A stretch of 64,000 bases of DNA from an uncultured SAR86 cluster bacterium (GTDB taxonomy: Bacteria > Pseudomonadota > Gammaproteobacteria > Magnimaribacterales > D2472). Below, one piece after another: positions 13,373-61,746 of the stretch (position 1 is the stretch's first letter; every line of letters begins with the position of its first letter). The translations under genes and the position numbers were made by a program. The stretch is taken from assembly GCA_902541175.1 (NCBI GenBank), contig CACBPP010000002.1, positions 117,589 to 181,588 on the forward strand, written 5' to 3'. Below the pieces are notes generated by a model, which saw only the letters and a list, made by a program, of their open reading frames with translations, did not search any database and was not told where the DNA came from.

Positions 13373-13391
13373 GGGGTGCATAATGCACCCC
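13373..13391 (+). terminator. GC-rich stem-loop downstream of hsp20 (possible terminator or attenuator)
   Basis: GGGGTGCA-TAA-TGCACCCC forms a perfect 8-bp stem that stands out in AT-rich sequence. The downstream U-tract is weak (AAAUGUU). Confidence 0.4.
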
Positions 13392-13420
13392 AAATGTTAA
13401 ATAGGATAAAATTATATTTA

Positions 13421-38054: not shown

Positions 38055-40919
38055 ATGTTTAACTTAGAAGATCAGAAATATATTAAATTATTAGACCTTA
38101 ATGCTCAAATATATACTGAATCTAATTTCAATTGCAAGCATATTCATCTAGATTCAAAAAGTGATGAAAAAGTCTTTATGGTTGCCTTTAGAACTATTCC
38201 TGAAGATTCAACTGGAGTTGCACATATCTTAGAACATACAGCTCTATGTGGATCAAAAAAGTATCCTGTCAGAGATCCATTTTTCATGATGATAAGAAGA
38301 TCTTTAAATACGTTTATGAATGCTTTTACTTCAAGTGATTGGACAGCATATCCTTTTGCCACACAAAATGATAAAGACTTTAATAACCTTTTAAGTGTTT
38401 ATTTAGATTCTTCTTTCTTTCCAAATTTAGATGAACTTGATTTCCTTCAGGAAGGCCATAGGCTCGAATTCTCCGAAAGTAATAACGCAGATAGCGATTT
38501 AGAAATTAAAGGGGTGGTTTACAATGAAATGAAAGGAGCTATGAGCTCTATAACTAGCCAGTTGTGGCATGGCCTATCAAAGCACCTATATAACTCATCA
38601 ACTTATAAACATAATAGTGGTGGAAATCCTGAAAACATTATAGATCTAACTCATGATTACCTTGTAGAATTCCACAAAAAACATTATCACCCGTCGAATG
38701 CAACTTTTTTTACATTTGGTAACGTTGATCCTACTGAAATTCAAGAATTCATAAATGAGAATGTTTTAAAAAGCTTTCAGCCATCATCTGAGACTATAAG
38801 TGTGAAAAACGAAAATAGAATCAGTGAACCAAAAACTATTACCGAATACTATAATCCCATGCCAGAAGATGAAAATAATCATCATGTCGTATTAAGCTGG
38901 CTTTTGGGAGAAAGTCATAATCCAGTAGAATTATTAGAATCGTATTTAGTTTCAAACATACTTTTAGATAATTCTGCATCGCCTTTAAGAAAGACGCTTG
39001 AAAATACCGATTTGGGTAAATCTTTATCTCCATTAACTGGTCTAGAAGCTGATCATAAAGAGCTAGTATTTGCTGCAGGTCTTGAAGGTGTAAATTCCAA
39101 TAAGCAACTTGAGGTTGAAGAATTAATTCTAAATTGTTTAAAAAATGTTGTCTCAAATGGCATTTCTGAAGAACTTGTTCAATCATCACTTCATCAACTT
39201 GAAATAAAGCAAAGAGAGATAACGGGTTCCGGTATGCCTTATGGTCTTCAAATTATGTTAGGTTGTCTTCCAGCCTGCTTACACAATGATGACCCTCTTA
39301 AAGTCTTAGATCTAGATGCATCATTTGATGTAATTAAAAATAATCTTAAAAAAGAAAACTATATTGAAAATCTTATTGAAAAGAAAATTATTAATAATCA
39401 ACATAGAGTGAACTACTGTCTTGCGCCTGATATTGAATTCAATTCAAAAAAAGAAATGGAAATCCAAGCAAAAATTGATCAAAAATCAAAAAACTTGTCC
39501 GTTGATGACAAAGAAAGAATAATTGAACTAGCTAAAAACTTAAAAGCTAGACAAGAAAAATCTGATAATCCAGAAATTTTACCCAAGGTAACTAAAGCAG
39601 ACATACCAAAATCTCGAGAATATGCAAAATCTCAATCTTTTAAAAATGACAATAAAAATTTCTATTACAACGTTGGTACAAATGGCATTACTTATCATTC
39701 AATAATTCTTCCATGCGATCCGCTGACTAAAGAGGAGTTCAAAATTGCCTCGTTATTTACAAATACATTAACTGATGTTGGGATTGGTGATAAAAGCTAT
39801 GAGGATGTCCAAAAAATGCAGTCTGCGGTAACTGGGGGTATTTCAGCAAGTTTTACACTCATTCCAGATGATAATCAATCGACTCATTCTTTAGGATTAA
39901 AAATCACATCTAAATCACTAGAAGATAATGAAAAGAAAATGCAAGATTTAATGATTGAAACTGCAAAGAACCCTAATTTTTCTGATAAAAATAGAATTAA
40001 AGATATGCTTAACTTCATATCATCAGACAATGAAAAGTCTTTAATACAAAATGGACATATTCTTTCTATGAGCAATGCTGCAGCTCAAATTAATAACATT
40101 TCAGCTACCAATGATTTCGTATCAGGTATAAATTTTATTACCAATACAAACAAGCTCTCAAAGAATATCGAAACGGAATCTAATCTTGATAAGTACATTC
40201 AATTATTAAATGGTATAAAAAATAAAATTGATTCAAATCCATCTTATTCATTTACTGCATCTTCTCTTGATATAGATCACTCAAATATTAACTTTGAGTT
40301 TGACGATAAAGATACCAACTTTAGTGTTCAGAATTATTTTGATATACAAGAAGAATCCATAGGATGGATTACAGGTGCTCAAGTTACTTATTGTTCTGAG
40401 GCTTTTCCGACGGTCGATTTTTTTCATAAAGATGCGCCAGCTTTGAGCGTTTTAGGTGCTGTTTTAAGAAATGGATATTTACATTCAGCAATCAGAGAGA
40501 AAGGTGGGGCTTATGGTTCCGGAGCGATGCAAGACTCCAATAACAAAGTATTTAAATTCTTTTCATATCGTGATCCAAGATGTTCTGAAACGTTTGAAGA
40601 GTTTCAAAAATCCAGAGAATGGTCACTCAAAAATATTACTCAAGAGCAGCTTGACGAGGGTGTTTTAGGAATAATATCAAGTATAGATAAGCCGCTATCT
40701 CCATTTGGAGAGGCGATGAGTGATTTCTCTATGAATCTTGATAAAAAAGATTTAGACGCAAGATTAAGAATTAGGTCATTAGTAAAAAGCTGTTCACTTG
40801 ATGATCTAGTAAATGTCTCTCAAAAATATTTGTTTAATGAATCAAAGAGATCTGTTATTGCAGGCGAAAATTATATTGATGAGATGAAAAAATTAAATTT
40901 CAAAATACAAAATATTTAA
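38055..40919 (+). CDS. M16C insulinase-family metalloprotease (PreP/presequence-protease-like)
   Basis: The inverted zinc motif HxxEH is present in HILEHTALCGS. The 954 aa length is typical of M16C. Confidence 0.85.
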   Translation: MFNLEDQKYIKLLDLNAQIYTESNFNCKHIHLDSKSDEKVFMVAFRTIPEDSTGVAHILEHTALCGSKKYPVRDPFFMMIRRSLNTFMNAFTSSDWTAYPFATQNDKDFNNLLSVYLDSSFFPNLDELDFLQEGHRLEFSESNNADSDLEIKGVVYNEMKGAMSSITSQLWHGLSKHLYNSSTYKHNSGGNPENIIDLTHDYLVEFHKKHYHPSNATFFTFGNVDPTEIQEFINENVLKSFQPSSETISVKNENRISEPKTITEYYNPMPEDENNHHVVLSWLLGESHNPVELLESYLVSNILLDNSASPLRKTLENTDLGKSLSPLTGLEADHKELVFAAGLEGVNSNKQLEVEELILNCLKNVVSNGISEELVQSSLHQLEIKQREITGSGMPYGLQIMLGCLPACLHNDDPLKVLDLDASFDVIKNNLKKENYIENLIEKKIINNQHRVNYCLAPDIEFNSKKEMEIQAKIDQKSKNLSVDDKERIIELAKNLKARQEKSDNPEILPKVTKADIPKSREYAKSQSFKNDNKNFYYNVGTNGITYHSIILPCDPLTKEEFKIASLFTNTLTDVGIGDKSYEDVQKMQSAVTGGISASFTLIPDDNQSTHSLGLKITSKSLEDNEKKMQDLMIETAKNPNFSDKNRIKDMLNFISSDNEKSLIQNGHILSMSNAAAQINNISATNDFVSGINFITNTNKLSKNIETESNLDKYIQLLNGIKNKIDSNPSYSFTASSLDIDHSNINFEFDDKDTNFSVQNYFDIQEESIGWITGAQVTYCSEAFPTVDFFHKDAPALSVLGAVLRNGYLHSAIREKGGAYGSGAMQDSNNKVFKFFSYRDPRCSETFEEFQKSREWSLKNITQEQLDEGVLGIISSIDKPLSPFGEAMSDFSMNLDKKDLDARLRIRSLVKSCSLDDLVNVSQKYLFNESKRSVIAGENYIDEMKKLNFKIQNI

Positions 40920-41525
40920 TTAAAAAAATATAAATTTCTTCCTTTTTAAATCTTTTTCACAACCCCAGTACTGTTTTTGATACTTAGTTGATCTTGCTTG
41001 AACTCTATCTGCAACTTTTATTAACCATTGTTTTTTTCTATAAGTTTTTCTTTCAAACCCTGTATAACCCTCGTGATATGCTAAATACAGTGACCTTGCA
41101 TCAGACCTCTCAAAACCTTGATAGTAACCCTTGCTTGCGTACCAACCTATAAAGTCTGCTGAATCTGCAAAATCTTTTCTGTTCGCCCTAGTATTTCCAG
41201 TTTCATCCTTATAATCATCCCAGGTTTTAGTAAGTGCTTGAGAATATCCAACAGCTGAAGATGGTCTAAACCAAGGTATAAAACCAAGGATTTTTTCTCT
41301 ATCAGGTTTGGCATCTGATTGGAAACTTGACTCCTGATGAACAAATGACATCAATACATAAGGTGGTATTTTCCATCTTTTTTCGCTTTTAATGACTGCT
41401 TTGTACCAACTTCTTTTTTCTTTGAAAATCAGACATATATTGTCAGGATTCTCCGGAGGTCTTGTAGCACAAGATTGAATAATCAATATTATTAATATGA
41501 AGTAACTATACTTAAATCTTTTCAT
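40920..41525 (-). CDS. lipoprotein with SLT-type lytic transglycosylase-like domain
   Basis: It has lipobox IIQSC and a catalytic-Glu context (FVHQESSFQSDA). It overlaps the ligase stop by 14 nt. Confidence 0.6.
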   Translation of the reverse strand: MKRFKYSYFILIILIIQSCATRPPENPDNICLIFKEKRSWYKAVIKSEKRWKIPPYVLMSFVHQESSFQSDAKPDREKILGFIPWFRPSSAVGYSQALTKTWDDYKDETGNTRANRKDFADSADFIGWYASKGYYQGFERSDARSLYLAYHEGYTGFERKTYRKKQWLIKVADRVQARSTKYQKQYWGCEKDLKRKKFIFF

Positions 41526-42798
41526 CCTCTTTAAATCCTCTAAAGTTTTTAAATCTTGGAAATCTTAAGCTATAGTGCTCGCCCTCAATACTTTGAGTTA
41601 TAGCATCTGCTCTAATTTCTACCATTCTTCCAATAAGTTTATCTTTTGCAGCCCAAAATCTTTCTCTATCATCATCAGTAAGGCCACTTCCAACGCTTAA
41701 AGAAAAGAACTTACCATCGTCTTTGCCTTCTACATGAAATGCACCTAACTTACCCTCATGCTTCCCTGACCCCTCTTGAATATCAATAACCTTCAGCGTT
41801 ACCTCAATGAAAGGTTTAATTTTTAACCAAGCATGACTTCTTTTACACTCATAAAAATTATCATTAGGTTTAATCATTAAGCCTTCAAAGCCTTTTTCAA
41901 GTGCTTCTTTATTCATGTTAGAAAATTTAGCTTTTCCATCATCATTATCAAAGTTAATAATTTCATAATCTACAAGCTTTATTGCATCATCAAATGATTT
42001 AGCTAATTCATTAAGTTGTTTTTTTCTTTCAATTGAAGTTAGTATACTTTTTCCATTATTAAATTCTTTGAGTGGAAGAATATCAAACAAAGCAAGATAG
42101 GCATCGTCAGTTTTTGCTCCAGATTTTCTATAAACTTGTTTCATTAAAGCTTGAAAATCATCGCTCATCACCTCTCCATCGAAAACAAGATTATTAAATT
42201 CTTTTTTACTTAGAGCGCTTTCAATATGTGGAAAATTATTAAATATCTTTCCATTTCGACTGTATAAAGTAGCTCTTCCATTTTTAACAATCGCAATAAC
42301 TCTTACACCATCATATTTGTACTCTACCAAACAATCGCCCTTAATTTTTTTTGGATGTTTAGCACCGTCATGAGCTAACATACATGAAAAAATAGGTACT
42401 CTAAATTCCAAGTCCATTTTTTTTGCAACGTTATTTACTGTCTTTTCACTTACTCCACATCTTAGGTCCTTGATAAGAATTCTTCTATACCAATAATTCC
42501 ACTGATCTGTCTTTGATGATTCAATTAATTCAATAATCAAATCTCTAGCAGCATGGCCAGTTTTGTCTCTATCTATTAATTGATTTGCAGCTTTCTTAAA
42601 ATCACTCCAATCTAAACCAACTCCATCTTCAATACATTCAGGCACTTGTTTTACTCCAAATGTGGTCAAAGGATCTAAACACATAACAAGTCCCTCTTGA
42701 AAAATTTTATCGTTAAGGTGCTTTTCTATCACTCCCTCTTTAAATAGCCGACTATTATCACTTTCAAGTTCTACAATAATCTTCCAAGGTTCTATCAT
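41512..42798 (-). CDS. ATP-dependent DNA ligase (compact three-domain type, cytoplasmic)
   Basis: All nucleotidyltransferase motifs are present: I EYKYDGVR, III LVFDGEV, IIIa LALFDIL, IV EGLMIK, V WLKIKP and VI LRFPRF. A helical N-terminal domain of about 150 aa ends in ILIKDLRCGVSEKTV. There is no signal peptide. Confidence 0.9.
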   Translation of the reverse strand: MIEPWKIIVELESDNSRLFKEGVIEKHLNDKIFQEGLVMCLDPLTTFGVKQVPECIEDGVGLDWSDFKKAANQLIDRDKTGHAARDLIIELIESSKTDQWNYWYRRILIKDLRCGVSEKTVNNVAKKMDLEFRVPIFSCMLAHDGAKHPKKIKGDCLVEYKYDGVRVIAIVKNGRATLYSRNGKIFNNFPHIESALSKKEFNNLVFDGEVMSDDFQALMKQVYRKSGAKTDDAYLALFDILPLKEFNNGKSILTSIERKKQLNELAKSFDDAIKLVDYEIINFDNDDGKAKFSNMNKEALEKGFEGLMIKPNDNFYECKRSHAWLKIKPFIEVTLKVIDIQEGSGKHEGKLGAFHVEGKDDGKFFSLSVGSGLTDDDRERFWAAKDKLIGRMVEIRADAITQSIEGEHYSLRFPRFKNFRGFKEDEKI

Positions 42799-42802
42799 TT
42801 AT

Positions 42803-43426
42803 TTAATTTTCCTCATCAGAAATATTAAGTTGTTTTAATCTTGCTGTATCTTGAGCTCTAGACTCAATATGTGAAATCATTTGTTTTGTTATTGGAGTTC
42901 TGTCTTGATCACAAAGTGTTGCATAAAATTTTTCTGCAAAGTTAATTGAAAATTCGATCATTTGTTTCACTGTATTTAAAGGATCATCTACAACATTTAA
43001 ATCAGATACAACTGCAATTGCAAACGATTTAGTTTCATCATCAAAAGTTCCCGGTTTTAAAGCGTTTATGACCCGAAATTTTTCTATTTTATTATCTTGA
43101 TAAAAAGCAAAGTAATTATTCACAGTTTTTGCTCCATAATTTGATAAAAAACCAAACAATTGATCCATGTCAAACATAGATCTATCCATAGAAATTAAAT
43201 TTAATATTACTAATTCCTGGTCATTTGACTGATTTATATCAAAATCAAAAGATTGTTGATTTTTATGTGGCTCATCTGAAATATTTAAATCGGATGGATC
43301 TTGGACTTTCTCAATTTTAACTTTTAAATTACCATCATTTGAGACTTTTCTTATGAATAAAAAAGTAATTATAAGAAATATCAAAATAGCGAGTCCTATT
43401 AGATATATCTCTGAATTTACACTCAT
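42803..43426 (-). CDS. zipA: cell division protein ZipA (short form)
   Basis: It has an N-terminal TM anchor and a C-terminal FtsZ-binding domain. INALKPGTFDDETKSF matches E. coli MVKPGTFDPEMKDF. It is 207 aa and lacks the long P/Q linker. Confidence 0.85.
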   Translation of the reverse strand: MSVNSEIYLIGLAILIFLIITFLFIRKVSNDGNLKVKIEKVQDPSDLNISDEPHKNQQSFDFDINQSNDQELVILNLISMDRSMFDMDQLFGFLSNYGAKTVNNYFAFYQDNKIEKFRVINALKPGTFDDETKSFAIAVVSDLNVVDDPLNTVKQMIEFSINFAEKFYATLCDQDRTPITKQMISHIESRAQDTARLKQLNISDEEN

Positions 43427-45625
43427 TTACGATTCAGCCAACTCGAGAGCTTGATTTACATCCACCGATACCATCCTTGAAACTCCAGCCTCTTGCATTG
43501 TTACACCCATAAGGTAGTCGCTTCTTTCCATTGAAACTTTATTGTGAGTTATGAATATAAACTGAACAGTTTTTGACATCTCCTCGACCATATTTATAAA
43601 TCTTAATGTATTCAAGTCATCCAAAGGAGCGTCTACTTCATCTAGCAAACAAAAAGGTGCTGGATTTAAGTCAAAAATTGCAAAAACTAAGGCCAATGCA
43701 GTTAGGGCTTTTTCACCACCAGACAGTTGAGATATTGATGAGTTTTTCTTTCCAGGAGGTCTTGCCATTAAAATCACACCGGCATTTAAAGCATCCTCCT
43801 CAGTCAAGGTTAATTCAGCTACCCCGCCACCAAAGAGTTTTGGAAACATCTCTTTTAGTTTTGAGTTAACAGAGTCAAAGCTTTCCTTAAAAATTGTTTT
43901 AGTTTCTTGATCTATCTTTTTTATTGCACCAGTAAGTTTTTCTAAAGCTTCTGTTAAGTCATTATATTGTTCATCTAGCTCTTCTTTTCTTTTTGATTCC
44001 TCTTCTATTTCTTCTGGCGCGGCTAAGTTAATAGCTCCTAATTTTATTATTTTTGTCTCAATATTGACCAGCTTATCCTCAAGCTCTTCTATAGTCATAT
44101 CTTCATATTCAGAAAAATCTATTTTATCTATGTCTATTCCAGCTTCTTTAATTTTTTTATTTGAATTATCTAAATTAATTTCGTAAGTTTTTTGCTCTAT
44201 TCTTATGTTTGTGATCTTTTCAGAAATTGTTCTGGCATCTAAATCTGCAATAGATTTTTTATTTTCAAACTCCCTCAATTCTTCATTAAATTTAGATTGT
44301 TTTTGCCTTAGGGAAATTAAAACTGATTCAGCACTAGAACTTTTATCTACAAAGTCTCTCATTTCATCTTCGATAGACTTTTTCAATTTTTCAGCATTTA
44401 AAATTTGATCCTCAAGATCATTTTGTCTTGATAAATATTCCTCAGTTAATGTCTTTGATTGAGCAGTCGCTATATTTAGAATATCTGTAAGTAAGCTTTT
44501 TAATTCAATTGCTTTTTCTCTGATATTTTCATTTTTTATTCCATATTTCTCTATTGTATTTATCATGCTGTCAAGGATATGCATTGCCTTTTCGCTTGGA
44601 CTTAACTCTTCAAAATTCTTTTCAGTTTCTTTAGCTTTTTCATAATTTTGTTTTACTTTTTCTAAATTAGACTTTGTTTCCTGTTCATTTTTATTGATGT
44701 TGTGAAGATTTGCCTCCCTTTTAGCTATTTCAGCACCTACAGCATAGAAATTCTTTTGAGCTTCTTCATATTCGCTCAGAACAGATTCATTTTCGGTTCT
44801 AAATTGATCTATTTGAGATTGTATGGTTTCAGATTCAGCATTTTTTATCTGCAAGTCTCTGTTTAATGAATCTAATTTTTTTTGAAGATCATCTCTACTA
44901 CTTTTAGCTTCAATAGAAAATAAAACGGCCTTGTCCAGTTCAAGTTTTGCTTTATCTTTTTTAAGTTCATTATATTTTTCAGCAGCTTTTGCCTGATTCT
45001 CAAGTCTTTTTATTAATCTTCCTATTTCATCTCTGATATCTTTTACTCGTGATAAATTTTCTCTGGTTCTTTTAATTCTAGATTCTGTTTCTTTTCTTCT
45101 TTCTCTATACTTTGATACTCCTGCAGCCTCTTCAATATGCGTTCTTAACTCATCTGGTTTTGCACTTACAAGCTTGGTGACCATCCCTTGTTCAATAATT
45201 GCATAAGAGCTTGGTCCAAGGCCGGTACCAAGGAATATATCTTGTACATCTTTCCTTCTACATTTTGTATTGTTTATAAAATAGTCAGACTGAGCGTCTC
45301 TTGTCATAACTCTTTTAATTGATACTTCATTAAATGATGCATACTCTCCCCCTATTTTCGCACTCGAGTTATCAAATAAGAGCTCGATACTGCATTGACC
45401 AGAAGCTTTTCTGTTCTCTGAGCCGTTGAAGATTACATCCACCATTGATTCACCTCTAAGATTTTTTGCTGATAATTCACCAAGCACCCATCTAACAGCA
45501 TCAATTACGTTTGATTTTCCACAACCATTTGGACCTACAACGCCGACCATATTTGTTGGGAAAGATATCTTCGTTGGATCAACGAAACTTTTAAAACCTG
45601 AAAGTTTTATATGTTTAAGCTGCAT
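43427..45625 (-). CDS. smc: chromosome partition protein Smc, unusually short (732 aa) with no recognisable hinge
   Basis: The N-terminal head is MQLKHIKLSGFKSFVD...VVGPNGCGKSNVIDAVRWVLGE. The C-terminal head has the signature LSGGEKALTALAL, Walker B CLLDEVDAPLDD and ITHNK. Between the heads lies only about 390 aa of heptad-rich sequence. Confidence 0.85.
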   Translation of the reverse strand: MQLKHIKLSGFKSFVDPTKISFPTNMVGVVGPNGCGKSNVIDAVRWVLGELSAKNLRGESMVDVIFNGSENRKASGQCSIELLFDNSSAKIGGEYASFNEVSIKRVMTRDAQSDYFINNTKCRRKDVQDIFLGTGLGPSSYAIIEQGMVTKLVSAKPDELRTHIEEAAGVSKYRERRKETESRIKRTRENLSRVKDIRDEIGRLIKRLENQAKAAEKYNELKKDKAKLELDKAVLFSIEAKSSRDDLQKKLDSLNRDLQIKNAESETIQSQIDQFRTENESVLSEYEEAQKNFYAVGAEIAKREANLHNINKNEQETKSNLEKVKQNYEKAKETEKNFEELSPSEKAMHILDSMINTIEKYGIKNENIREKAIELKSLLTDILNIATAQSKTLTEEYLSRQNDLEDQILNAEKLKKSIEDEMRDFVDKSSSAESVLISLRQKQSKFNEELREFENKKSIADLDARTISEKITNIRIEQKTYEINLDNSNKKIKEAGIDIDKIDFSEYEDMTIEELEDKLVNIETKIIKLGAINLAAPEEIEEESKRKEELDEQYNDLTEALEKLTGAIKKIDQETKTIFKESFDSVNSKLKEMFPKLFGGGVAELTLTEEDALNAGVILMARPPGKKNSSISQLSGGEKALTALALVFAIFDLNPAPFCLLDEVDAPLDDLNTLRFINMVEEMSKTVQFIFITHNKVSMERSDYLMGVTMQEAGVSRMVSVDVNQALELAES

Positions 45626-45650: not shown

Positions 45651-46436
45651 TTATAACTCTTGTGGGGTTTTAAACCATTCATTTAAATTAATTTTGTATG
45701 AATTAAAAGGTATATCTTGATTAGGAAATATTTTGTTTTCTACAAAAAATATTTGCTGATCATCCAAGCAATTAATTTTAATTTTCATCTCAATAGATTC
45801 TTGATTTAAATATGCAGAAGCTAAGTCAAATCCAGGTATCACGCTGTCTAGATTATTTAATGAAATATTATCTTTGTTTTTGAATTCTTTTTTGGCAATC
45901 GGTATTTCAGGACCATTTGCTATGAAAAGAGTAACTTCTCCATTTCTAATAGAACACGGATACAATGAGCTAGAGTCTATCTTAAAACTAGAGCTCTTAA
46001 ATTTAGGAAATTTCTCATCTCTTAAAGCAGCATATAAGTTATAGAAGATAAGTTTTTCATTATTTGATTTAAAGAATCTCTCTGAAAAAGCTATTAAACT
46101 CTCAGCTGACTTAAGTTTTTTTAAATCTATTGATTTGCCAATAAGGCCTACTAGCCAATTTTTTAATTCATCTTCATCAAGAATATTTTCTAGTTGTTTT
46201 AGATATTCAACAGATATTCCTTCATCAATATAAATTTCATCAAAAATTTTATTATTTAGTGCTTGTTTTTCATAAGAACCAACAAATGCAAATTTACTTA
46301 TAAACATAAATAGGCATAAGGAAAGGATTAACAATGATGATCCAAAGATCAGTCCTTTGTTTATGGTTTTCTGAGCCAAAATATAAGCGATTATTGGCAA
46401 AGCGGCTAATATTGTTAATAAATAAAAAATAAACAT
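45651..46436 (-). CDS. ccmI: CcmI-like cytochrome c maturation protein (assigned by position)
   Basis: It directly follows ccmH with a 1-nt overlap and has two N-terminal TM helices, as in the CcmI-1 module. The C-terminal part is not obviously TPR. Confidence 0.45.
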   Translation of the reverse strand: MFIFYLLTILAALPIIAYILAQKTINKGLIFGSSLLILSLCLFMFISKFAFVGSYEKQALNNKIFDEIYIDEGISVEYLKQLENILDEDELKNWLVGLIGKSIDLKKLKSAESLIAFSERFFKSNNEKLIFYNLYAALRDEKFPKFKSSSFKIDSSSLYPCSIRNGEVTLFIANGPEIPIAKKEFKNKDNISLNNLDSVIPGFDLASAYLNQESIEMKIKINCLDDQQIFFVENKIFPNQDIPFNSYKINLNEWFKTPQEL

Positions 46437-46804
46437 TATTTTTTTCTAAAGAAAAAAATTAAAAATGCTAAAAGTAAAAAAACGAATGGAGAATACCATA
46501 AAATATAGGTTGTATTATTTAGCTCAGGTTCGTATAAAGAATCTTGTCCAAATCTTGACGAAACATAGTCTTTAATTTCTTGATCAGTTTTGTTTTCATT
46601 GATCATTTGAGCAATCTTAATTTTTAAATCTTCAGATATTGGAGCATTTGAACTTGATAAAGAACCAGAAGTACATTTAGGGCATCTTATATCTTTTATT
46701 AAATTATTAAATCTATTTTCATCATACTCATCTTCAAAATAATATAAGTTGTCTGATGAAATATTTAATGATAAGAATAATATGAATGTATATAAACACC
46801 GCAT
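46436..46804 (-). CDS. ccmH: cytochrome c-type biogenesis protein CcmH
   Basis: Motifs RCPKCTSGSLSSSNAPIS (CxxC followed by SNAP) and a C-terminal TM segment are present. Confidence 0.88.
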   Translation of the reverse strand: MRCLYTFILFLSLNISSDNLYYFEDEYDENRFNNLIKDIRCPKCTSGSLSSSNAPISEDLKIKIAQMINENKTDQEIKDYVSSRFGQDSLYEPELNNTTYILWYSPFVFLLLAFLIFFFRKK

Positions 46805-47326
46805 CTAAAACATTTTCCTATCTTTAATGATTGGCAAAAACACATCATTCCATATTTGATCATTTACCTCACCTTGATAATGAGCAACAACTCTACCATC
46901 GCTTATCAAAAAAGTTTCTGGTGCACCCGTAACACCTAAATCAAGTGCCAAGTTTCCTTTATAATCATGCAATATTGTCTGATATGGATTGCCATATTTT
47001 TTTAACCAAATGATGGCATCTTCTTGTTCATCTTTATAATTTAATCCAATAACAGGTATGCCATTTTTGCTTAAGCTTGTTAGGTACGGATGTTCTATGA
47101 TGCAAGTTATACACCAGCTAGCCCATACATTTAAGACATAGTCACCATTTAAAAGGTCATTGTTAACTGTCATTGTATTATCAAGAACTTTTAATTCAAA
47201 CTCAGGAATCTGAAACTGATCATAGTCAGCCCCAGGATATGTATCTTCATTAGTTAAAATCATAAAAAATAATAATAAGAAAATTGTTGGGACTATAAAA
47301 ACTATTAATTTTAATAATAAGTTCAT
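46805..47326 (-). CDS. ccmG: thiol:disulfide oxidoreductase CcmG/DsbE
   Basis: Motifs WASWCITC and GVTGAPETFLI are present, with an N-terminal anchor. Confidence 0.9.
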   Translation of the reverse strand: MNLLLKLIVFIVPTIFLLLFFMILTNEDTYPGADYDQFQIPEFELKVLDNTMTVNNDLLNGDYVLNVWASWCITCIIEHPYLTSLSKNGIPVIGLNYKDEQEDAIIWLKKYGNPYQTILHDYKGNLALDLGVTGAPETFLISDGRVVAHYQGEVNDQIWNDVFLPIIKDRKMF

Positions 47327-49221
47327 GTTTTGACACTATTTGAAAAAACTAATATTACTCCAGCTAAACCCATCAATAATGCTGATAACCAAATCCATCT
47401 TATTAAGTAGTTAATTTGGATATTCACTATCCAACTTCCATCATCAAGCTGGTCTCCAATTGTTATGTAAATATCTCTCAAAAATGTTATGTGAATTGCT
47501 GTTTCTGTTGTGATTTGGCCCCTTGTAAAATATCTTCTTTTTTCTGGTTTAAGATTAAATGTTCTTCCGGTTTGGTCTTCCACAAGAAATGTTGCTTTTA
47601 TTGAATCATAATTAGCGTTATTTTCCACACCAATATCTTTAAAAGAAATTTTTAAGTCTTTGTATGACTCAGTAGTATTCAAATTAATACTTAAAGCTCT
47701 TTCAGTACTCAAAAGACTATTGAATGAAATAGATATTAAAAGTAATCCTAGTGACATATGAGCTATGACACTAAAGGGATTTATAAATTTCTTAGTAAAA
47801 ATAAAGTTAACAATTTCGTATATATATCTAAATATAATTAATGATCCTGCAAATATCGAAGCAAGTATTGAAATACTATGGGATTCAAAATATTGCATAA
47901 CAAATATAGTGAATGCTAATGATAATAAAATTGAAAAAGATATCGGCGGCGAAATAAATTTGAAGTTGATGCTTCTTGACCATTTTGAATCAACCGAGAA
48001 AAATAAAAAAATTGCAGCTAAAGCAACTATTGGGATAAATATTGCATTATAAAATGGCGCACCAACACTAATTTTTTGATCAAATAAAAATTCGTAAATT
48101 AATGGGTACGTAACGCCCAGCATCACGGAAAAGATAAGAGCTCCAAAAAGAATATTATTTATAGAAATAAATGATTGTTTTGAAAATTTCTTAATTCTTG
48201 ATAAGGATTGAATGCTTGATAATCTCAAAATAAATAAAAAAACTGATGTAAAAACAATTAATCCAATAAATCCAAGAAGATATAGACCTCTGTCAGGATC
48301 ATTTGCAAATGCATGAACGCTATCAATAATTCCAGATCTAACAATAAATGCTCCAAACAAACTGAGCGAAAACACTAAAATTGATAATAAAATTGTCCAA
48401 ATTCTTAGCTGCGATGATTTTATTGATACTCCAAGAGAATGAATAAATGCAGTAGCCGCAAGCCATGGCATTAATGCAACATTTTCAACAGGATCCCAAA
48501 ACCAATATCCTCCCCAACCCAATTCATAGTAAGCCCACCAACTCCCAAGAGTAATGCCAACTGTAAGAAAAACCCATGCAGAAACTGACCATGTTTTTAC
48601 TAAAGCTTCCCAGTTTATTTTGGAATCGCCATAGAGTAAAAAAGCTATTGCGCTAGCAAACGGAATTACAAATCCGACGTATCCCAGATAAAGAGTTGGA
48701 GGATGAATTGCTAAGGCAGGATCTTGTAAGACTGGATTAATATCAGCTCCATTTAAAGGTGGAATTGGAAGTATTGTCTCAAAAGGATTTGATGTTGCTA
48801 ACAAAAATATTAAAAATCCAACCAATATGAAAGAAATTACTCCCATTGTTTTAGGCTTTAAAACTTCATTATTTTTTACCCTAATATTGAATAAGAAACC
48901 CCATAAAGATAAAAAAACAATCCATAGAAACATTGAGCCTTCATGTGCACTCCATATCGAAGAAATTTTATAAAAAATTGGAAGTGCTGTATTTGAGTGA
49001 TTTGCAATATATTGAACACTAAAATTATCTGTAATAGCCAGCCAAACATATATTAAAAATGAGGATAGAAGAAAAAAGAATCCATGCGAATATGTTCTGA
49101 CAATCAAGTTTGATATGTAGCTAGAATTTGATGAAGGAGTAAGGATAGAGAAATAACCAACGAGTAAAAATAAGCCGGTAGCTAAAACTGATAAAAAATG
49201 AGAGATTTCAATTATCATCAT
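47323..49221 (-). CDS. ccmF: cytochrome c heme lyase subunit CcmF
   Basis: It is a 632 aa polytopic protein with the WWD motif GWGGYWFWDPVEN. Confidence 0.93.
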   Translation of the reverse strand: MMIIEISHFLSVLATGLFLLVGYFSILTPSSNSSYISNLIVRTYSHGFFFLLSSFLIYVWLAITDNFSVQYIANHSNTALPIFYKISSIWSAHEGSMFLWIVFLSLWGFLFNIRVKNNEVLKPKTMGVISFILVGFLIFLLATSNPFETILPIPPLNGADINPVLQDPALAIHPPTLYLGYVGFVIPFASAIAFLLYGDSKINWEALVKTWSVSAWVFLTVGITLGSWWAYYELGWGGYWFWDPVENVALMPWLAATAFIHSLGVSIKSSQLRIWTILLSILVFSLSLFGAFIVRSGIIDSVHAFANDPDRGLYLLGFIGLIVFTSVFLFILRLSSIQSLSRIKKFSKQSFISINNILFGALIFSVMLGVTYPLIYEFLFDQKISVGAPFYNAIFIPIVALAAIFLFFSVDSKWSRSINFKFISPPISFSILLSLAFTIFVMQYFESHSISILASIFAGSLIIFRYIYEIVNFIFTKKFINPFSVIAHMSLGLLLISISFNSLLSTERALSINLNTTESYKDLKISFKDIGVENNANYDSIKATFLVEDQTGRTFNLKPEKRRYFTRGQITTETAIHITFLRDIYITIGDQLDDGSWIVNIQINYLIRWIWLSALLMGLAGVILVFSNSVKT

Positions 49222-56027: not shown

Positions 56028-58844
56028 TTAAAATTCAGCACCAAATTGTAGACCCCAAGTTCTAGGATCTGTGAAGTTTCCATATAATTGGCCACCTTGG
56101 ATATTACTTCCAGATCTTATGCTATTAATTATTCTGTCATCAGTTAAATTCTTAGCATATAAACCAACATACCAATCTCCGTTATTTGGAGTAAATCTAA
56201 TAAGCGAATCCCACATTTTTTGCTCAGGAACATCAAATCTTGAGTAATTAAATGGATCACCATTTACCTCGTCTCTGAATCTATAAGAAAGCCTCCACGA
56301 AGTTTCACCATTTTCTGTTGGGAATACTTGTGTCAAAGAGAGACTGTAGGAAAGATCTGCTACACCAGGTAAAGGATTACCAGCAACACTCACAGGAACT
56401 CCTAATGATGCAGCTGCAGGACAATCAACACCTGCCGCAGGAGCAAAGCGTGGAGAACTACAGTTAAATCCAGCAGATTTAAAACCTGTGACTCCATTAT
56501 CAAAAACAGCGCCAGTTTGGAATCCTGTGCCAGCAGTATCAACTGGTCCTAAGTATCTTATAATACTATTAGCATCCCATGGGTTTAGGTAATTAATTGT
56601 AGCTGGTGCATCCGTAATTTCTGCATCAACCATTAACCATGAAAGTTCTAATTGTGTTGTTTCAGATAAAAATACATTCATTTGACCCTCAAAACCAGTG
56701 ATTTCAGCATCAACGTTGTTGTTAAATGATTGCGTATCTCTAATCGTTGCAAGCAACATACCTTCGTTATCATTTTTATAAAGGTTCATATTAAGAAGCA
56801 TTGCACCGTCAAGTAATCTAGCTTTTAAACCAAAGTCTAGTACAGCAGTTTCTTCCTTATCATAAGGGATAGGATCATCACCTGCGTTTACACCAGCACC
56901 CTTGGTAGCAGTTGCATAACTTGCGTATACCATAACATCGTCTCTCAGATATTTTTGAATTGCAATTTTTCCGTTAGTAGCTGATTCATTTTGAACTAGG
57001 TAGTCTACTAATCCAGGTACTTTCATTCTGTCATCGTATAAAAAACCACCAGCACGAATCCAATCAGTTGAAAGAATACCACCATTATAAGTTGTGGTAG
57101 CATTAGTTAAATCATCAAAACGTAATCCAAAGGTAAGTTTAGTAGTATCATTTAGATCGTAATAAAGCTCACCATAAAGAGCTTGAGATTTAATTCTTAC
57201 ATGTTGATCACTTAAAGTACCTCTAATATCCATAGGAACTGTTACATCAGGTAATTTACCAAGATCACCGATTGATTTTTGCCATGCTTGAAGTGCTGCT
57301 ATATCTTCTTGAGATACTGGAAGGCCCATTGCAAGCATAGTAGCGGTAGTTTGTGCATCGGTTGCACCTCCAACTACAGCTAATAAACCTTGATAGAAAG
57401 GAACACCACCTTTGGCACCAAAGTCTACACCTAATAGCGCAGTAACTGTTGGGTAATAAGGATGTGAACTAAAGTCACCAATATATTGAGTACCTGGAGT
57501 TTGAACTCTGTACTCGTTATCATTTCTTGAATCATACATGTAGTAACCAACTGTATAATTAAGAGGTCCATCAAAATCTGAAATTATGTTAATTTCAGCT
57601 TGTTGTGATTCATACAATACATCTGAAAAGTCATATGTTCTGTCGGTTGTTACATATTCGCAGAATCCAAAACGAGGAGTTCCAAAGCACTGTTCTGACT
57701 CAACAGGTGGTAGACCTAATAATACGCCAGCACCTATAAATGGTGAGTATGAAACACTACCATCATTATCATTCATTTGTTGGAACATTCTTGTTTCATA
57801 TGAATATTTTGCAGTCATAGTCAGGCTATCACTTAGTTCTTTTACCAACTCTAGGTTTGAAAATTCTATTTTTTGAAGGTGAGTTGGCTCTCTATTTACA
57901 GATAACTCTCCAAGCTCAAGAGCTGGAGGTGTTGCTCCATAATCGTTAGTAATGGTTCCGGGATATAAAGCTGCAATAAACGAGAATAATCCAGCACCTA
58001 TACCTCTACTATCAGCAGCGGTATTAGGAGTTCCTCTTTCCCACGGCGAACAACCAAAAAATGCATCTTGTTTACAGAAAGAAACTTCTTCTTGAGGTCT
58101 ATTATCATCACTTTTTTGACCTGAATATGTAAATCTTAATTCAGTAGTATCGTTAATGTCCCAGTCAATAGAAAGTCTGACTGCTTCATCGTTTCTATCA
58201 TCCATAACATTTCCAGTGAAAGGATTATCAACCATTCCATCTCTAGTGTTTGTCATAAATGCTAGCCTTCCTCTTACATCATCAGAAAAAGGAACATTTA
58301 TTGCACCTTGAACAGTTTCTTTATCATATGAACCACCTTCGAATCTAATAGAACCTTCAAATTCATCAGTAGGTCTTTTGGTAATTAAATTGATAACACC
58401 TGCAACTGAGTTTCTACCAAAAAGTGTACCTTGAGGACCATTAAGAACCTCAATACGCTCAAGATCCATGAATCCCATATCTGTCATGATACTTGGATTC
58501 ACACTATGCCCATTAACACTTGTTACTATTGAACTAACAACAGCAGCACCAACACCATAAGATCCAATACCTCTCATAACAAACCCTGAACCAGAACCGA
58601 TTCCTTTTGCTACTTCAAAGCCTGGAACAACTTCAGCTAAGTCTGAAAGATCATATAACTGATCAGCTTCAAGTTGATCTGATGTTATAGCAGTGATTGA
58701 AACTGCAATATCTTGAGTTGATTCCTCTTTCTTAGTAGCTGTAACAACAACTTCTTCAATTTCTTGTGCAAAAGAAGAAATAGAGAAAGCTAATGTTAAA
58801 AGAGAAATAGAAAATAATTTACTAGTAAAATTTATGTTAAACAT
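56028..58844 (-). CDS. TonB-dependent outer-membrane receptor (paralog 1)
   Basis: It has a signal peptide and a plug N-terminus (AQEIEEVVVTATKKEESTQD, IEVLNGPQGTLFGRN). The C-terminal beta-barrel ends in TWGLQFGAEF. I trimmed the start to the ATG at 58844, which has the SD GGGGGA. Confidence 0.9.
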   Translation of the reverse strand: MFNINFTSKLFSISLLTLAFSISSFAQEIEEVVVTATKKEESTQDIAVSITAITSDQLEADQLYDLSDLAEVVPGFEVAKGIGSGSGFVMRGIGSYGVGAAVVSSIVTSVNGHSVNPSIMTDMGFMDLERIEVLNGPQGTLFGRNSVAGVINLITKRPTDEFEGSIRFEGGSYDKETVQGAINVPFSDDVRGRLAFMTNTRDGMVDNPFTGNVMDDRNDEAVRLSIDWDINDTTELRFTYSGQKSDDNRPQEEVSFCKQDAFFGCSPWERGTPNTAADSRGIGAGLFSFIAALYPGTITNDYGATPPALELGELSVNREPTHLQKIEFSNLELVKELSDSLTMTAKYSYETRMFQQMNDNDGSVSYSPFIGAGVLLGLPPVESEQCFGTPRFGFCEYVTTDRTYDFSDVLYESQQAEINIISDFDGPLNYTVGYYMYDSRNDNEYRVQTPGTQYIGDFSSHPYYPTVTALLGVDFGAKGGVPFYQGLLAVVGGATDAQTTATMLAMGLPVSQEDIAALQAWQKSIGDLGKLPDVTVPMDIRGTLSDQHVRIKSQALYGELYYDLNDTTKLTFGLRFDDLTNATTTYNGGILSTDWIRAGGFLYDDRMKVPGLVDYLVQNESATNGKIAIQKYLRDDVMVYASYATATKGAGVNAGDDPIPYDKEETAVLDFGLKARLLDGAMLLNMNLYKNDNEGMLLATIRDTQSFNNNVDAEITGFEGQMNVFLSETTQLELSWLMVDAEITDAPATINYLNPWDANSIIRYLGPVDTAGTGFQTGAVFDNGVTGFKSAGFNCSSPRFAPAAGVDCPAAASLGVPVSVAGNPLPGVADLSYSLSLTQVFPTENGETSWRLSYRFRDEVNGDPFNYSRFDVPEQKMWDSLIRFTPNNGDWYVGLYAKNLTDDRIINSIRSGSNIQGGQLYGNFTDPRTWGLQFGAEF

Positions 58845-58954
58845 GAATATCCCCCAATGTTTAAATTGTTTTGCATATTTTATGCTTAAAAGTAGCTTTA
58901 GGACAACAAATTTAGATAAAAAATATATATAAAAATAGATGTATTTTTGATAAA

Positions 58955-58986
58955 CCAAACAAAAAAGGCTGGTAAAACCAGCCTTT
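58955..58986 (-). terminator. rho-independent terminator between the two receptor genes
   Basis: The stem AAGGCTGG/CCAGCCTT has loop TAAAA and is followed on the minus strand by TTTTGTTTGG. Confidence 0.7.
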
Positions 58987-59004
58987 AATCACTTTACTTA
59001 ACAA

Positions 59005-61746
59005 TTAGAAGGTAGTTCCAAATGCAATTCCCCAGGTTCTTGGATCAGTTATAGTTGCAAATTTATTACCGCCTTGTAATCCACTTGCAAGATACCAAGA
59101 GCCTATGTATCTATCATTAGTAAGATTTTTGCCCTCCAGCCTTACAAACCAATTACCACCATTTGGTCTATAAGTTACCGTTGCGTCGAAAAATTCATGT
59201 TCTGGCATTTTTAACCATGGCTGATTAAACACTGTGCCTTCTCTCTCATCCATAAATCTATAGGCAATTCTTGCAGTTGTAATACCATTGTCTCCAACAA
59301 AATCTTTATTAAGTCCAATGCTATAAGAAAGTTCCGGTGATTGAGGTAATTTATTACCTGATACATCTACAGGAACACCCAAATCATCGCCTTTACATCC
59401 TGCAGCACCAGTAGGATCAAATGGATTAAATGGAGCAAGACACATAAACCCAGCAAATTTATAAACAAGACCTGCATCAGTTGCGCCAACTGACAAAACA
59501 CCACCAGTAGAAGCGATTGGAAGCATTAAGCCTCCACCGAGAGCAGCAGGAAGAGGAACTCTTGCAGTTGCATTATTGATATTAACTGGATTGATTAAAC
59601 TTAAGCTGGTTATCTCGGTATCAACTTTTAATAATGTTAAATCAATACTTAATGTTTCGTTTAAATACAACAACATATTACCTTCAAACCCTTCTATCTC
59701 CGCGTCTGTATTAACATTCCTTGATCCCGCATTCACAATGGATGAAATCAACATGCCATCAGTGGTATTTTGGAAATAAGTTGCATTTAGCAACATTGCT
59801 CCATCAAGGAATATGCCTTTTGCGCCAACTTCAAATACAGCTGTTTCTTCTTGATCGTAAGGATCTGGTGTTCCGGTTGAATTAGGATTATTACCACCTG
59901 CTTTTACGGCAGTGGTATAACTTGTATAAACCATTCTGTTGTCATCAAGGTCATGTTGTAATGCCAGCTTATAACCAAGTGCATCATCAGATTCAGTAAC
60001 CTGAGTTGGGAAGAATCCATACTCAGAAGTGACTTTTTGTGAGTCAGGATAATTTGGACAACTTGCAAATGTTAAACATGATGCAACACTATCTTTTACA
60101 ACATCATCGTTATATCTAATACCAAGAGTAAACATGGTATCGTCTGAAAGTTCATAGTACATCTCACCAAGAATTGCTTTTGATTTAATTCTTACATGAT
60201 CTTCATTAACAAAACCTTGAATTTGTAAGGGTGTTGTATAACCAGTTAAAACTGATGGTAGTGCGTCAGCACTAAAGGCAGCTAAAGCCCAAGCAACATG
60301 AAAATCAGTTGAACCAGATCCGGTAAGAGCTCCTCCAAATAAGGCATTGTTATATGGATGAACACTTGAATCACGTATCAAGTTCCATGCGGCTGTTTGA
60401 ACTTGGTAAATATTTGTTGTTGTTAAATCATAATAATAATAACCTATCTGGTAATTTAAAGGTCCGTCAAAGTCAGATATCAATGTTACTTCACCTTGCC
60501 AAGTTTCGGTTTCAGTAAATGCAAATTCATATGTTCTATCAGTAGTATTAATTTCACAGAATGTATTATGAAAACCTCCATAACAACCTTCCCACTGCAT
60601 TGGAATTGCAGATGCTGGATGCCCAGCTGGAAATAATCCCGGAAATGGTTGAGGCGCCACTGCATAATCATTATCACCAACATGCTCATAATCTCTTACG
60701 CTATATGTACTTTTTACCTCTAATCTATGATCGTCATTAAGCTCATGATCTAATTTCACTTGAGCAAATTGATATGTTTGCTTTAGAACAGGATCTCTAT
60801 TGAGATTTACTACTTCTATATCATTGGTAGGCACTACTCCAGCATAAGAATTATATGTTGGATTAGGTGTTAAAGCTGCTGCAAAATTAAAGAATCCTGC
60901 AGTACTTCCGTTAACATGAGCCGGTTGACCAAATACACCTTTATCAAAAGGACTACACCCAAATAAAGGATCTTGTTGACAAACATTATGACCAATATTT
61001 TGTCTATCATCATCAGCCTTTTGATAATCATATGTTAATTCCATTGAAGTAGAATCACTTATATCAAAGTCAATCGATAATCTTGCACCTAAAGCATCTC
61101 TTCCATCAATGTCATTTCCAGTATATAAATTTTTAACAACTCCATCTCTTTCAAATGTAGTTGCAGCCAATCTCATACCAACTCTATCTGAAAGTGGTAC
61201 ATTGAAAACCATATTTGTTCTTGTTGAATTTAGATTACCCATTGAAACTTCAAAAGAACCTTCAAGCTCTGATGTTGGTCTAGCAGTAACAATATTTACC
61301 AAGCCTTGAACAGCATTTCTTCCAGATAATGTTCCTTGAGGTCCTTTTAAAACCTCAATTCTCTCAAGATCATGAAAACCTGTATCAGCAAGAGCAGATG
61401 ATCCGAATTCGTGACCATTCATTGAGACCACCAATGATCCAACTACTGCTGCTCCTACACCATATGAACCAACGCCCCTCATTGAGTAAGATGCGCCAGA
61501 ACCAATAGCTTTATCAACAATCAATCCAGGTACTACTTCAGCTAAATCGCTAAAGTCATCAATCATATTCTTGTCAATATCAGAAGATGTAAACGCCTCA
61601 ATAGAAACTGGAATATCTTGAACAGATTTTTCTTGTTTTGTTGCAGTCACAACTACTTCTTCTATTTCTTGAGCGGTTACGAATGCTGTAAAAATTAATG
61701 AAAAGCATAATGAAAAATTAAATGCTATTTTTGAATACTTATACAT
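59005..61746 (-). CDS. TonB-dependent outer-membrane receptor (paralog 2)
   Basis: The architecture matches paralog 1: AQEIEEVVVTATKQEKSVQD, IEVLKGPQGTLSGRN and terminal TWGIAFGTTF. The SD is AGGGGGGA. Confidence 0.9.
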   Translation of the reverse strand: MYKYSKIAFNFSLCFSLIFTAFVTAQEIEEVVVTATKQEKSVQDIPVSIEAFTSSDIDKNMIDDFSDLAEVVPGLIVDKAIGSGASYSMRGVGSYGVGAAVVGSLVVSMNGHEFGSSALADTGFHDLERIEVLKGPQGTLSGRNAVQGLVNIVTARPTSELEGSFEVSMGNLNSTRTNMVFNVPLSDRVGMRLAATTFERDGVVKNLYTGNDIDGRDALGARLSIDFDISDSTSMELTYDYQKADDDRQNIGHNVCQQDPLFGCSPFDKGVFGQPAHVNGSTAGFFNFAAALTPNPTYNSYAGVVPTNDIEVVNLNRDPVLKQTYQFAQVKLDHELNDDHRLEVKSTYSVRDYEHVGDNDYAVAPQPFPGLFPAGHPASAIPMQWEGCYGGFHNTFCEINTTDRTYEFAFTETETWQGEVTLISDFDGPLNYQIGYYYYDLTTTNIYQVQTAAWNLIRDSSVHPYNNALFGGALTGSGSTDFHVAWALAAFSADALPSVLTGYTTPLQIQGFVNEDHVRIKSKAILGEMYYELSDDTMFTLGIRYNDDVVKDSVASCLTFASCPNYPDSQKVTSEYGFFPTQVTESDDALGYKLALQHDLDDNRMVYTSYTTAVKAGGNNPNSTGTPDPYDQEETAVFEVGAKGIFLDGAMLLNATYFQNTTDGMLISSIVNAGSRNVNTDAEIEGFEGNMLLYLNETLSIDLTLLKVDTEITSLSLINPVNINNATARVPLPAALGGGLMLPIASTGGVLSVGATDAGLVYKFAGFMCLAPFNPFDPTGAAGCKGDDLGVPVDVSGNKLPQSPELSYSIGLNKDFVGDNGITTARIAYRFMDEREGTVFNQPWLKMPEHEFFDATVTYRPNGGNWFVRLEGKNLTNDRYIGSWYLASGLQGGNKFATITDPRTWGIAFGTTF

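Follow-up and report, generated by a model that had tools for sequence, protein, structure and literature searches.

The window analysed here is a stretch of 64,000 nucleotides (nt) from an uncultured SAR86 cluster bacterium of the gammaproteobacterial family D2472 (assembly GCA_902541175.1, contig CACBPP010000002.1). On its minus strand, an operon of smc, zipA and a gene for a lytic transglycosylase of the SLT_4 family encloses a gene for a putative adenosine triphosphate (ATP)-dependent DNA ligase, at the place where related SAR86 species carry ligA, the gene for the nicotinamide adenine dinucleotide (NAD)-dependent enzyme. LigA is treated as universal and essential in bacteria, and it serves both as an antibiotic target and as a single-copy marker of genome completeness. 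The use of NAD or ATP by DNA ligases is a cited divide between bacterial replication on one side and archaeal and eukaryotic replication on the other. The ligase slot and its borders comprise the following features (lengths in amino acids, aa).

41512-42798, minus strand: DNA ligase of the ATP-dependent Pmar-Lig / T4-like phage type, 428 aa, with PF01068 and PF14743
Ligase residues 1-140 (approximate): N-terminal helical DNA-binding domain
Ligase residues 149-328 (approximate): nucleotidyltransferase domain, with adenylation lysine K161
Ligase residues 342-420: OB_2 domain
42799-42802, minus strand: spacer of 4 nt between zipA and the ligase gene (ATAA on the coding strand), a tight operon junction
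42803-43426, minus strand: zipA, 207 aa (ZipA_C, E 1e-11), the upstream border of the slot
43427-45625, minus strand: smc, 732 aa (TIGR02168, 814 bits), 0 nt from zipA
40920-41525, minus strand: SLT_4 lytic transglycosylase, 201 aa, with a lipoprotein-like N-terminus (SLT_4, E 1e-72), the downstream border of the slot

In the ORF (open reading frame) listing of the window, the ligase frame begins with ATG and is intact over its 428 aa. The Pfam search matched DNA_ligase_A_M (PF01068) with E 1.6e-23 at residues 149-328 and DNA_ligase_OB_2 (PF14743) with E 4.9e-12 at residues 342-420, and residues 1-148 matched no Pfam family. The families that make up NAD-dependent ligases (the PF01653 adenylation domain, the LigA-type OB, the Zn finger, HhH and BRCT) gave no match to the ORF at E ≤ 0.01. 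A first-pass annotation made from the DNA letters had read this ORF as an ATP-type ligase with every motif of that class, and both the domain searches and the motifs agree with it: the six strings start at residues 161 (KYDGVR, motif I), 206 (FDGE), 237 (LFDIL), 305 (EGLMIK), 324 (WLKIKP) and 412 (RFPRF). K161 of KYDGVR (161-166) aligns with the lysine of the KLDGVR motif of Pmar-Lig. In an alignment of 38 family sequences the motif cores do not vary: motif I always has its K and DG, motif III its D and E, motif IIIa its FD, motif IV its EG and K, motif V its K.KP and motif VI its SLRFP.

The top match in the PDB was entry 6RAU (E 7.8e-131), with 6RAS, 6RAR and 6RCE belonging to the same set; these are structures of the Prochlorococcus marinus ATP-dependent ligase Pmar-Lig on nicked DNA (PMC7470946; Williamson & Leiros, NAR 2019, PMC6698739). 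Because of an E value of this size the ORF is not a chance frame. A single alignment pairs residues 6-428 with 10-442 of 6RAU, the DNA-binding domain included, and identity to Pmar-Lig is about 50% over trimmed alignment columns. Since Pmar-Lig has been characterised biochemically, this resemblance suggests that the SAR86 enzyme is likewise specific for ATP and seals nicks. Between close SAR86 species pairs, the ratio of nonsynonymous to synonymous substitution rates (dN/dS) of the ligase gene is 0.045-0.08, in the same range as that of smc (0.03-0.07). The gene is intact and under strong purifying selection. Its guanine plus cytosine (GC) content, about 31%, is that of the remaining window.

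Models of other ligase classes scored far below their cut-offs. The LigE model NF006592 gave 76 bits against a cut-off of 200, the model for ligases of nonhomologous end joining (NHEJ), TIGR02779, gave 95.7 bits against 227.75, the LigD model TIGR02776 gave 81.5 bits against 373.2, and TIGR04120, which describes an ATP-dependent ligase of the cisplatin damage response, gave 62.3 bits against 400. By eye, the N-terminus MIEPWKIIVELESDNSRLFKEG is hydrophilic, without a hydrophobic signal-like stretch; the annotation had likewise seen no signal peptide and had set the enzyme apart from LigE. It had also placed the start of the ligase gene 4 nt after zipA and zipA directly against smc, as the coordinates above confirm. 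It did not mention the other end of the gene, where the SLT_4 gene starts inside the 3' end of the ligase gene with an overlap of 14 nt (41512-41525).

What normally occupies this slot became apparent from related genomes. GTDB species-representative genomes were scanned with the SMC of the window, giving 77 SAR86 species loci; their titles are mostly those of SAR86 cluster bacteria, the others being metagenome-assembled genomes (MAGs) of unclassified Gammaproteobacteria or Proteobacteria. Several loci, such as that of isolate AG-891-I20, are 99% identical to the window in SMC. Two single-cell assemblies at NCBI have contigs that encode exactly this ligase protein. The gene order is the same in 77 of 77: ccm genes, a 260-aa gene, smc, zipA, the ligase slot and SLT_4, followed by a convergent M16 peptidase where present. 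The slot between zipA and SLT_4 holds an ATP ligase in 43 loci, 71-99% identical to that of the window, and an ORF of LigA length (673-719 aa) in 30, with two more in which such an ORF is cut by the contig end; the other two loci stop short of the ligase gene. No locus carries both ligases in one slot, i.e., occupancy is strictly either/or in the 75 typable loci. Six of the long slot ORFs, taken from all clades, proved by Pfam to be full-length LigA with Nlig-Ia, the adenylation domain (E 1e-92 to 1e-96), OB, HhH and BRCT.

The exchange is confined to the ligase frame. Junctions were read in 13 representative loci of both ligase types, nine of them LigA-type. Twelve of these loci, of both types, have 0-20 nt between the zipA stop and the ligase start, and in L058 the two genes overlap by 1 nt; the zipA/ligase junction was read in the 99%-identical locus L003. 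At the other border, the overlap with SLT_4 measures 23 nt for LigA in each of the nine LigA-type loci read; for the ATP ligase it is 14 nt in the clade of the window and 1-4 nt in its sister clade. For two loci of the window's clade the ORF caller chose earlier starts, the junction sequence itself being unchanged. Remnants of the displaced ligase were not found by tblastn in either locus type, and none of LigA turned up in 832 kilobases of ATP-type loci plus the window. Since other SAR86 species carry full-length LigA in the identical slot, the in-situ displacement is shown directly: in SAR86 D2472, an ATP ligase has replaced ligA position for position and ORF for ORF. The non-orthologous displacement that the first-pass annotation had proposed is thus borne out by the smc-zipA neighbourhood of relatives, in which 43 ATP-type and 30 (plus two partial) LigA-type loci have identical flanks.

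The overlaps also bear on the SLT_4 gene, which is linked to the ligase of the slot whichever type is present and has its start codon inside the ligase 3' end. Overlaps of 14 nt in the window and 23 nt with LigA elsewhere therefore suggest that this cell-wall enzyme is translationally coupled to the ligase in the smc-zipA operon.

An independent sample gave the same picture. Among 34 metagenome contigs retrieved with a ZipA query, 33 reach beyond zipA, and in all 33 one or the other ligase follows directly. Where ZipA identity to a reference was at least 85%, the ligase type was always that of the nearest reference species, and this small sample of 34 contigs gave no sign of ligase polymorphism within species. 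Two metagenome contigs, L155 (CENN01028183.1) and L156 (OZSS01025219.1), are ATP-type with ZipA 61-65% and ligase 74-76% identical to the references, which indicates additional ATP-type SAR86 lineages beyond the 77 species loci. In two LigA-type MAG loci the ligA frame is split (L044:11622-13777, 510 + 189 aa; L040:5458-7513, 189 + 473 aa). The split could be an assembly artefact or a frameshift error; alternatively, ligA may be decaying in these loci, a possible intermediate state.

The role of the ATP ligase in the cell depends on whether LigA is encoded elsewhere. None of ten large ORFs scanned in the window is LigA, the sole candidate of LigA length (674 aa, 13376-15400) being DsbD, and tblastn of seven SAR86 LigAs against the window returned nothing below E = 0.2. 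A collection of 5.8 billion proteins was searched with two SAR86 LigAs, one from each major clade, which yielded 147 cluster representatives of SAR86-type LigA. Each of the 147 shows 93% identity or more to a LigA that was placed in the canonical slot, and the canonical slot context was found in 13 of 13 inspected contigs from five LigA sequence groups. As ATP-type species make up more than half of those sampled, a relocated LigA should have produced extra sequence groups and other contexts.

Published marker counts point in the same direction. Supplementary Table 1 of Ramfelt et al. 2024 (PMC11582366) lists counts of marker genes, LigA (TIGR00575) being one of the completeness markers, and related genomes are labelled there as o__SAR86, f__D2472 according to GTDB. 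In the part of that table used here, which covers 47 genomes, the row TIGR00575 is 0 in GCA_000252525.1 (g__SAR86A) and in GCA_000384935.1 and GCA_000385055.1 (both g__SCGC-AAA076-P13), with highest completeness estimates of about 97%, 93% and 99%, respectively; the count is 1 in most of the other genomes, that of the second genome column included (PMC11582366). Among our loci, those titled SCGC AAA076-P13 (L055) and SCGC AAA168-P09 (L059) are ATP-type and that of a SAR86B MAG (L046) is LigA-type. By their names, the D2472 genomes with a count of 0 thus fall into lineages of the ATP type. DNA ligase is absent from the text of Ramfelt et al. 2024 (PMC11582366). The protein clusters and the marker table indirectly support the view that ATP-type genomes, that of the window included, have no LigA elsewhere, and the ATP ligase is most likely their only DNA ligase. 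The first-pass annotation had argued that Okazaki fragments would be sealed at the expense of ATP if ligA were missing from the rest of the genome; this now has indirect support from both sources.

The closest relatives of the ligase outside SAR86 are 51-59% identical and lie on viral contigs of IMG/VR. On several of these contigs, phage-family matches identify the neighbours as endolysin, RuvC-like resolvase, deoxynucleoside monophosphate kinase and exonuclease, and further neighbours include polynucleotide kinase, RNA ligase and virion or tail-fibre proteins. A representative with 47% identity sits amid homologues of UvsW, gp45, gp44 and RegA, which form a T4-like replication module, and PHROG 114 (ATP-dependent DNA ligase) matches the phage homologue on L098. 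No phage could be named as donor, as the INPHARED isolates reach at most 35% identity and are mostly SPO1-like Bacillus phages. The family was not found in the ligA slot of other cellular lineages either: the three top representatives inspected, with 45-49% identity, have a T4-like phage context or lie on contigs too short to judge.

In neighbour-joining trees the SAR86 ligases are monophyletic in 200 of 200 bootstraps. They group with phage contigs L080-82 in 137 of 200 and, with L087 and L103 added, in 156 of 200; the partners of Pmar-Lig are two other phage contigs, L093 and L098, again in 156 of 200. An exclusive clade of SAR86 ligases and Pmar-Lig appeared in 0 of 200 bootstraps, which speaks against a direct transfer between Prochlorococcus and SAR86. 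The SAR86 ligase and Pmar-Lig are not closest relatives, and this points to separate acquisitions; the most economical reading of the trees would be that SAR86 and high-light Prochlorococcus each captured related phage ligases. The structure match, the relatives on phage contigs and the tree all place the enzyme in the Pmar-Lig / T4-like phage family, and the phage or picoplankton type that the first-pass annotation had suspected fits this placement on both counts.

That annotation had spoken of ATP-dependent sealing in this lineage as such, and here the comparison adds a correction. As a proxy for the species tree we used concatenated SMC and M16 sequences (57 taxa, 1686 columns). On this tree all outgroup lineages have LigA, and each of the two large sister clades, with an SMC of 732 aa and 995 aa, contains both ligase types. 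By Fitch parsimony, 99 of 100 bootstrap trees require four or more changes of ligase type. Among sister SAR86 lineages, then, the occupant of the slot has changed at least four times, and the displacement is not fixed. At the same time, the ligases look inherited. Identities of the ATP ligase track those of SMC (0.75 for both between clades; 0.84 and 0.85, respectively, inside the window's clade), the ATP-ligase tree agrees for the most part with that of the flanking genes, the LigA tree does so roughly, and the LigAs of the 732-aa clade are monophyletic. In the zipA and SLT_4 trees, LigA-type species stay beside their ATP-type sisters, so that any exchanged segment would have been close to the ligase ORF alone.

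Repeated recombinational cassette swaps, long-lived maintenance of both alleles and differential loss from a tandem intermediate are candidate histories of this pattern, and we cannot tell them apart because both ligase gene trees look vertical. It seems somewhat the better bet that in D2472 NAD- and ATP-dependent ligases behave as interchangeable cassettes in one slot, with at least four exchanges or differential retentions and exactly one ligase per genome.

We consider that a functional phage-type ATP ligase has replaced ligA in D2472 and now most likely acts as the sole replicative ligase, and assign this explanation a probability of roughly 0.8. In an ancestor within this SAR86 family, a ligase gene from a marine phage would have displaced ligA, ORF for ORF, in the smc-zipA-ligA-SLT_4 operon, and would since have been inherited as a core gene. 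The enzyme would use ATP to seal Okazaki fragments and repair nicks: lysine 161 would be adenylated, the adenosine monophosphate transferred to the 5' phosphate of the nick, and the junction closed by attack of the 3' hydroxyl. The replicative role is deduced from the slot and from the apparent lack of LigA. Several points weigh against this explanation. Cofactor use and activity are taken from a homologue with about 50% identity; the trees are neighbour-joining trees, with moderate support of 137-156 of 200 for the phage sister groups; the 47 genomes in the marker table are incomplete single-amplified genomes (SAGs) and MAGs, and its accessions were matched to our loci by GTDB genus and species names, not by accession identity. 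At another locus the genome may, formally, encode a second ATP ligase or a highly divergent or foreign LigA or LigB.

The last point leads to the most serious competitor, an accessory repair ligase that came to lie beside zipA by chance while the replicative LigA moved elsewhere in the same genome. Most bacterial ATP ligases (LigB, C, D and E) are indeed accessory (PMC7470946; 10.1101/2020.05.11.089284), and our searches covered the loci, the window and the protein collection, not any ATP-type genome whole. Occupancy, however, is either/or throughout the typable loci, all clusters of SAR86-type LigA that were found trace to the canonical slot, and the three D2472 genomes with a TIGR00575 count of 0 in the part of the table used have highest completeness estimates of 93-99%. 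The characterised neighbours also include no Ku or other NHEJ partner, although Ku was not searched genome-wide. We regard this alternative as unlikely. An enzyme for another substrate, such as an RNA ligase or a ligase for repair of RNA-DNA hybrids, with an unrecognised ligase serving DNA replication, would account for the weak match to Pfam RNA_ligase (E 6.6e-06, 26.8 bits, slightly below the 27-bit cut-off). It is highly improbable, given that Pmar-Lig, a homologue over the full length, has been crystallised with nicked DNA and reportedly seals DNA nicks, that the OB_2 domain with motif VI is of the DNA-ligase type, and that the gene is located in the ligA slot. A recent phage or genomic-island insertion, or a chimera of assembly or SAG, without a stable cellular role has even less to recommend it. 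The nearest homologues outside SAR86 do lie on phage contigs, but the flanks in the window are free of phage genes, the packing (a 4-nt spacer and a 14-nt overlap) is that of an operon, and GC content equals that of the window. The ligase recurs across independent studies, in 43 SAGs and MAGs at species level, and in numerous metagenome contigs, its tree mostly follows the flanking-gene tree, its divergence follows that of smc, and dN/dS is about 0.05, so that comparative data effectively refute an insertion or chimera. The replacement of ligA by a functional ATP ligase thus remains the preferred explanation.

The wider neighbourhood contains the following genes. The upstream order (45651-49221) was matched on related contigs by Pfam labels, and the peptidase is part of the conserved downstream context.

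47323-49221, minus strand: ccmF, upstream context
46805-47326, minus strand: thioredoxin-like gene, upstream context
46436-46804, minus strand: ccmH-like gene, upstream context
45651-46436, minus strand: 261-aa protein with no Pfam family found, upstream context
38055-40919, plus strand: M16C (PreP-like) peptidase, convergent with the ligase operon

The two genes upstream of the ligase have peculiarities of their own. ZipA falls short of the TIGR02205 cut-off (25 bits, with 119.65 required), the FtsZ-binding C-terminal domain alone being recognisable, and zipA evolves faster than the other genes of the operon (dN/dS reaches about 0.25, and identities are 38-70% compared with 66-90% for smc). 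SAR86 SMC is short, with 732 aa in the window, 995 aa in L042:8001-10988 and 810 aa in L036:8001-10433, compared with the 1181 positions of TIGR02168. The SMC of the window matches this model in two stretches, the best of which covers model positions 1-373, and Pfam SMC_hinge was not detected at E ≤ 0.01 in the 732-, 995- and 810-aa proteins. This suggests an SMC with a shortened coiled coil and a hinge that is missing or highly divergent. Elsewhere in the window and unrelated to the ligase, two adjacent genes on the minus strand (56028-61746) encode TonB-dependent receptors of 976 and 913 aa. Such receptors are characteristic of SAR86 genomes, and both they and the GC content of about 31% fit a SAR86 origin of the window.

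If the ATP ligase is indeed the replicative enzyme, the case gains weight from the organisms in which it occurs. SAR86 is abundant in the ocean, and sister species carry different ligases at one slot. A second exception to the use of LigA, apparently separate, in another phylum and in an abundant clade, suggests that Prochlorococcus does not stand alone, and replacement by phage ligases may recur in streamlined surface-ocean bacteria. Because sister SAR86 species differ only in the ligase of the slot, they form natural matched pairs for the costs and benefits of the two cofactors, which could address gene size, NAD+ economy and activity. Should the slot truly exchange cassettes, repeated reciprocal swaps of cofactor type would already have been run in nature, offering a system in which to ask why bacteria normally use NAD+ ligases. 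In practice, ATP-type genomes would always lack TIGR00575, and marker-based completeness would therefore be slightly underestimated for a large part of D2472.

Compared with LigA, the SAR86 ligase occupies the same slot and would perform the same nick-sealing job in replication and repair. The two are homologous in the core of the nucleotidyltransferase/OB superfamily only; the SAR86 enzyme lacks the Ia, Zn-finger, HhH and BRCT domains, is 428 aa long instead of 673-719 aa, and presumably uses ATP, not NAD+. With LigB, LigC, LigD and LigE it shares the nucleotidyltransferase superfamily and partial NCBIfam matches. It differs from LigE (about 280 aa, with a signal peptide and no DNA-binding domain) in its length, its N-terminal domain and the absence of a signal peptide, from LigD in having no polymerase or phosphoesterase domain, and from the accessory LigB-E in general in lacking the large DNA_ligase_A_N domain. 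The T4-like phage ligases, such as T4 gp30, belong to the same family, those of uncultured marine phages being 51-59% identical. Unlike these, the SAR86 gene is chromosomal, lies in an operon of cell division and chromosome segregation, is vertically inherited and is apparently the cell's own.

The nearest parallel is Pmar-Lig, which shares with T4 ligase a pared-down DNA-binding domain of seven helices (PMC7470946). The SAR86 enzyme has the same architecture, i.e., PF01068 and PF14743 preceded by a DNA-binding domain without a Pfam model, which the alignment predicts to be helical. High-light Prochlorococcus reportedly has no intact LigA and carries AD-Lig P at the position of LigA in low-light strains (Hjerde et al., bioRxiv 10.1101/2020.05.11.089284). 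AD-Lig P is reported to be ATP- and Mg-dependent and active on nicks, at more than 10 times the level of the low-light Prochlorococcus LigA, and Hjerde et al. claimed the first bacterium to depend on an ATP ligase for replication (10.1101/2020.05.11.089284). Prochlorococcus is also reported to have truncated copies of NAD ligase in genomic islands and extra ATP ligases of the LigB and WGR types (10.1101/2020.05.11.089284). The rare natural exception that the first-pass annotation expected holds as a replacement, and high-light Prochlorococcus deprives it of being the first (10.1101/2020.05.11.089284).

The kind of replacement described here, with the same enzyme family, is therefore already known from high-light Prochlorococcus (10.1101/2020.05.11.089284), where too an ATP ligase stands at the syntenic position of the full-length LigA of relatives. 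We found no report of a ligase replacement in SAR86 in a literature search of limited scope, and reports elsewhere are possible. The two cases differ in the phylum (SAR86 belongs to the Gammaproteobacteria) and in the slot, which is smc-zipA-[lig]-SLT_4 in SAR86 and in Prochlorococcus is found downstream of recA, with a small hypothetical gene on either side. They differ as well in distribution: Prochlorococcus shows one split between ecotypes, whereas in SAR86 the types alternate among sister lineages. What is apparently unreported is the SAR86 case itself, with its probable separate acquisition from marine T4-like phages and at least four switches of ligase type among sister lineages.

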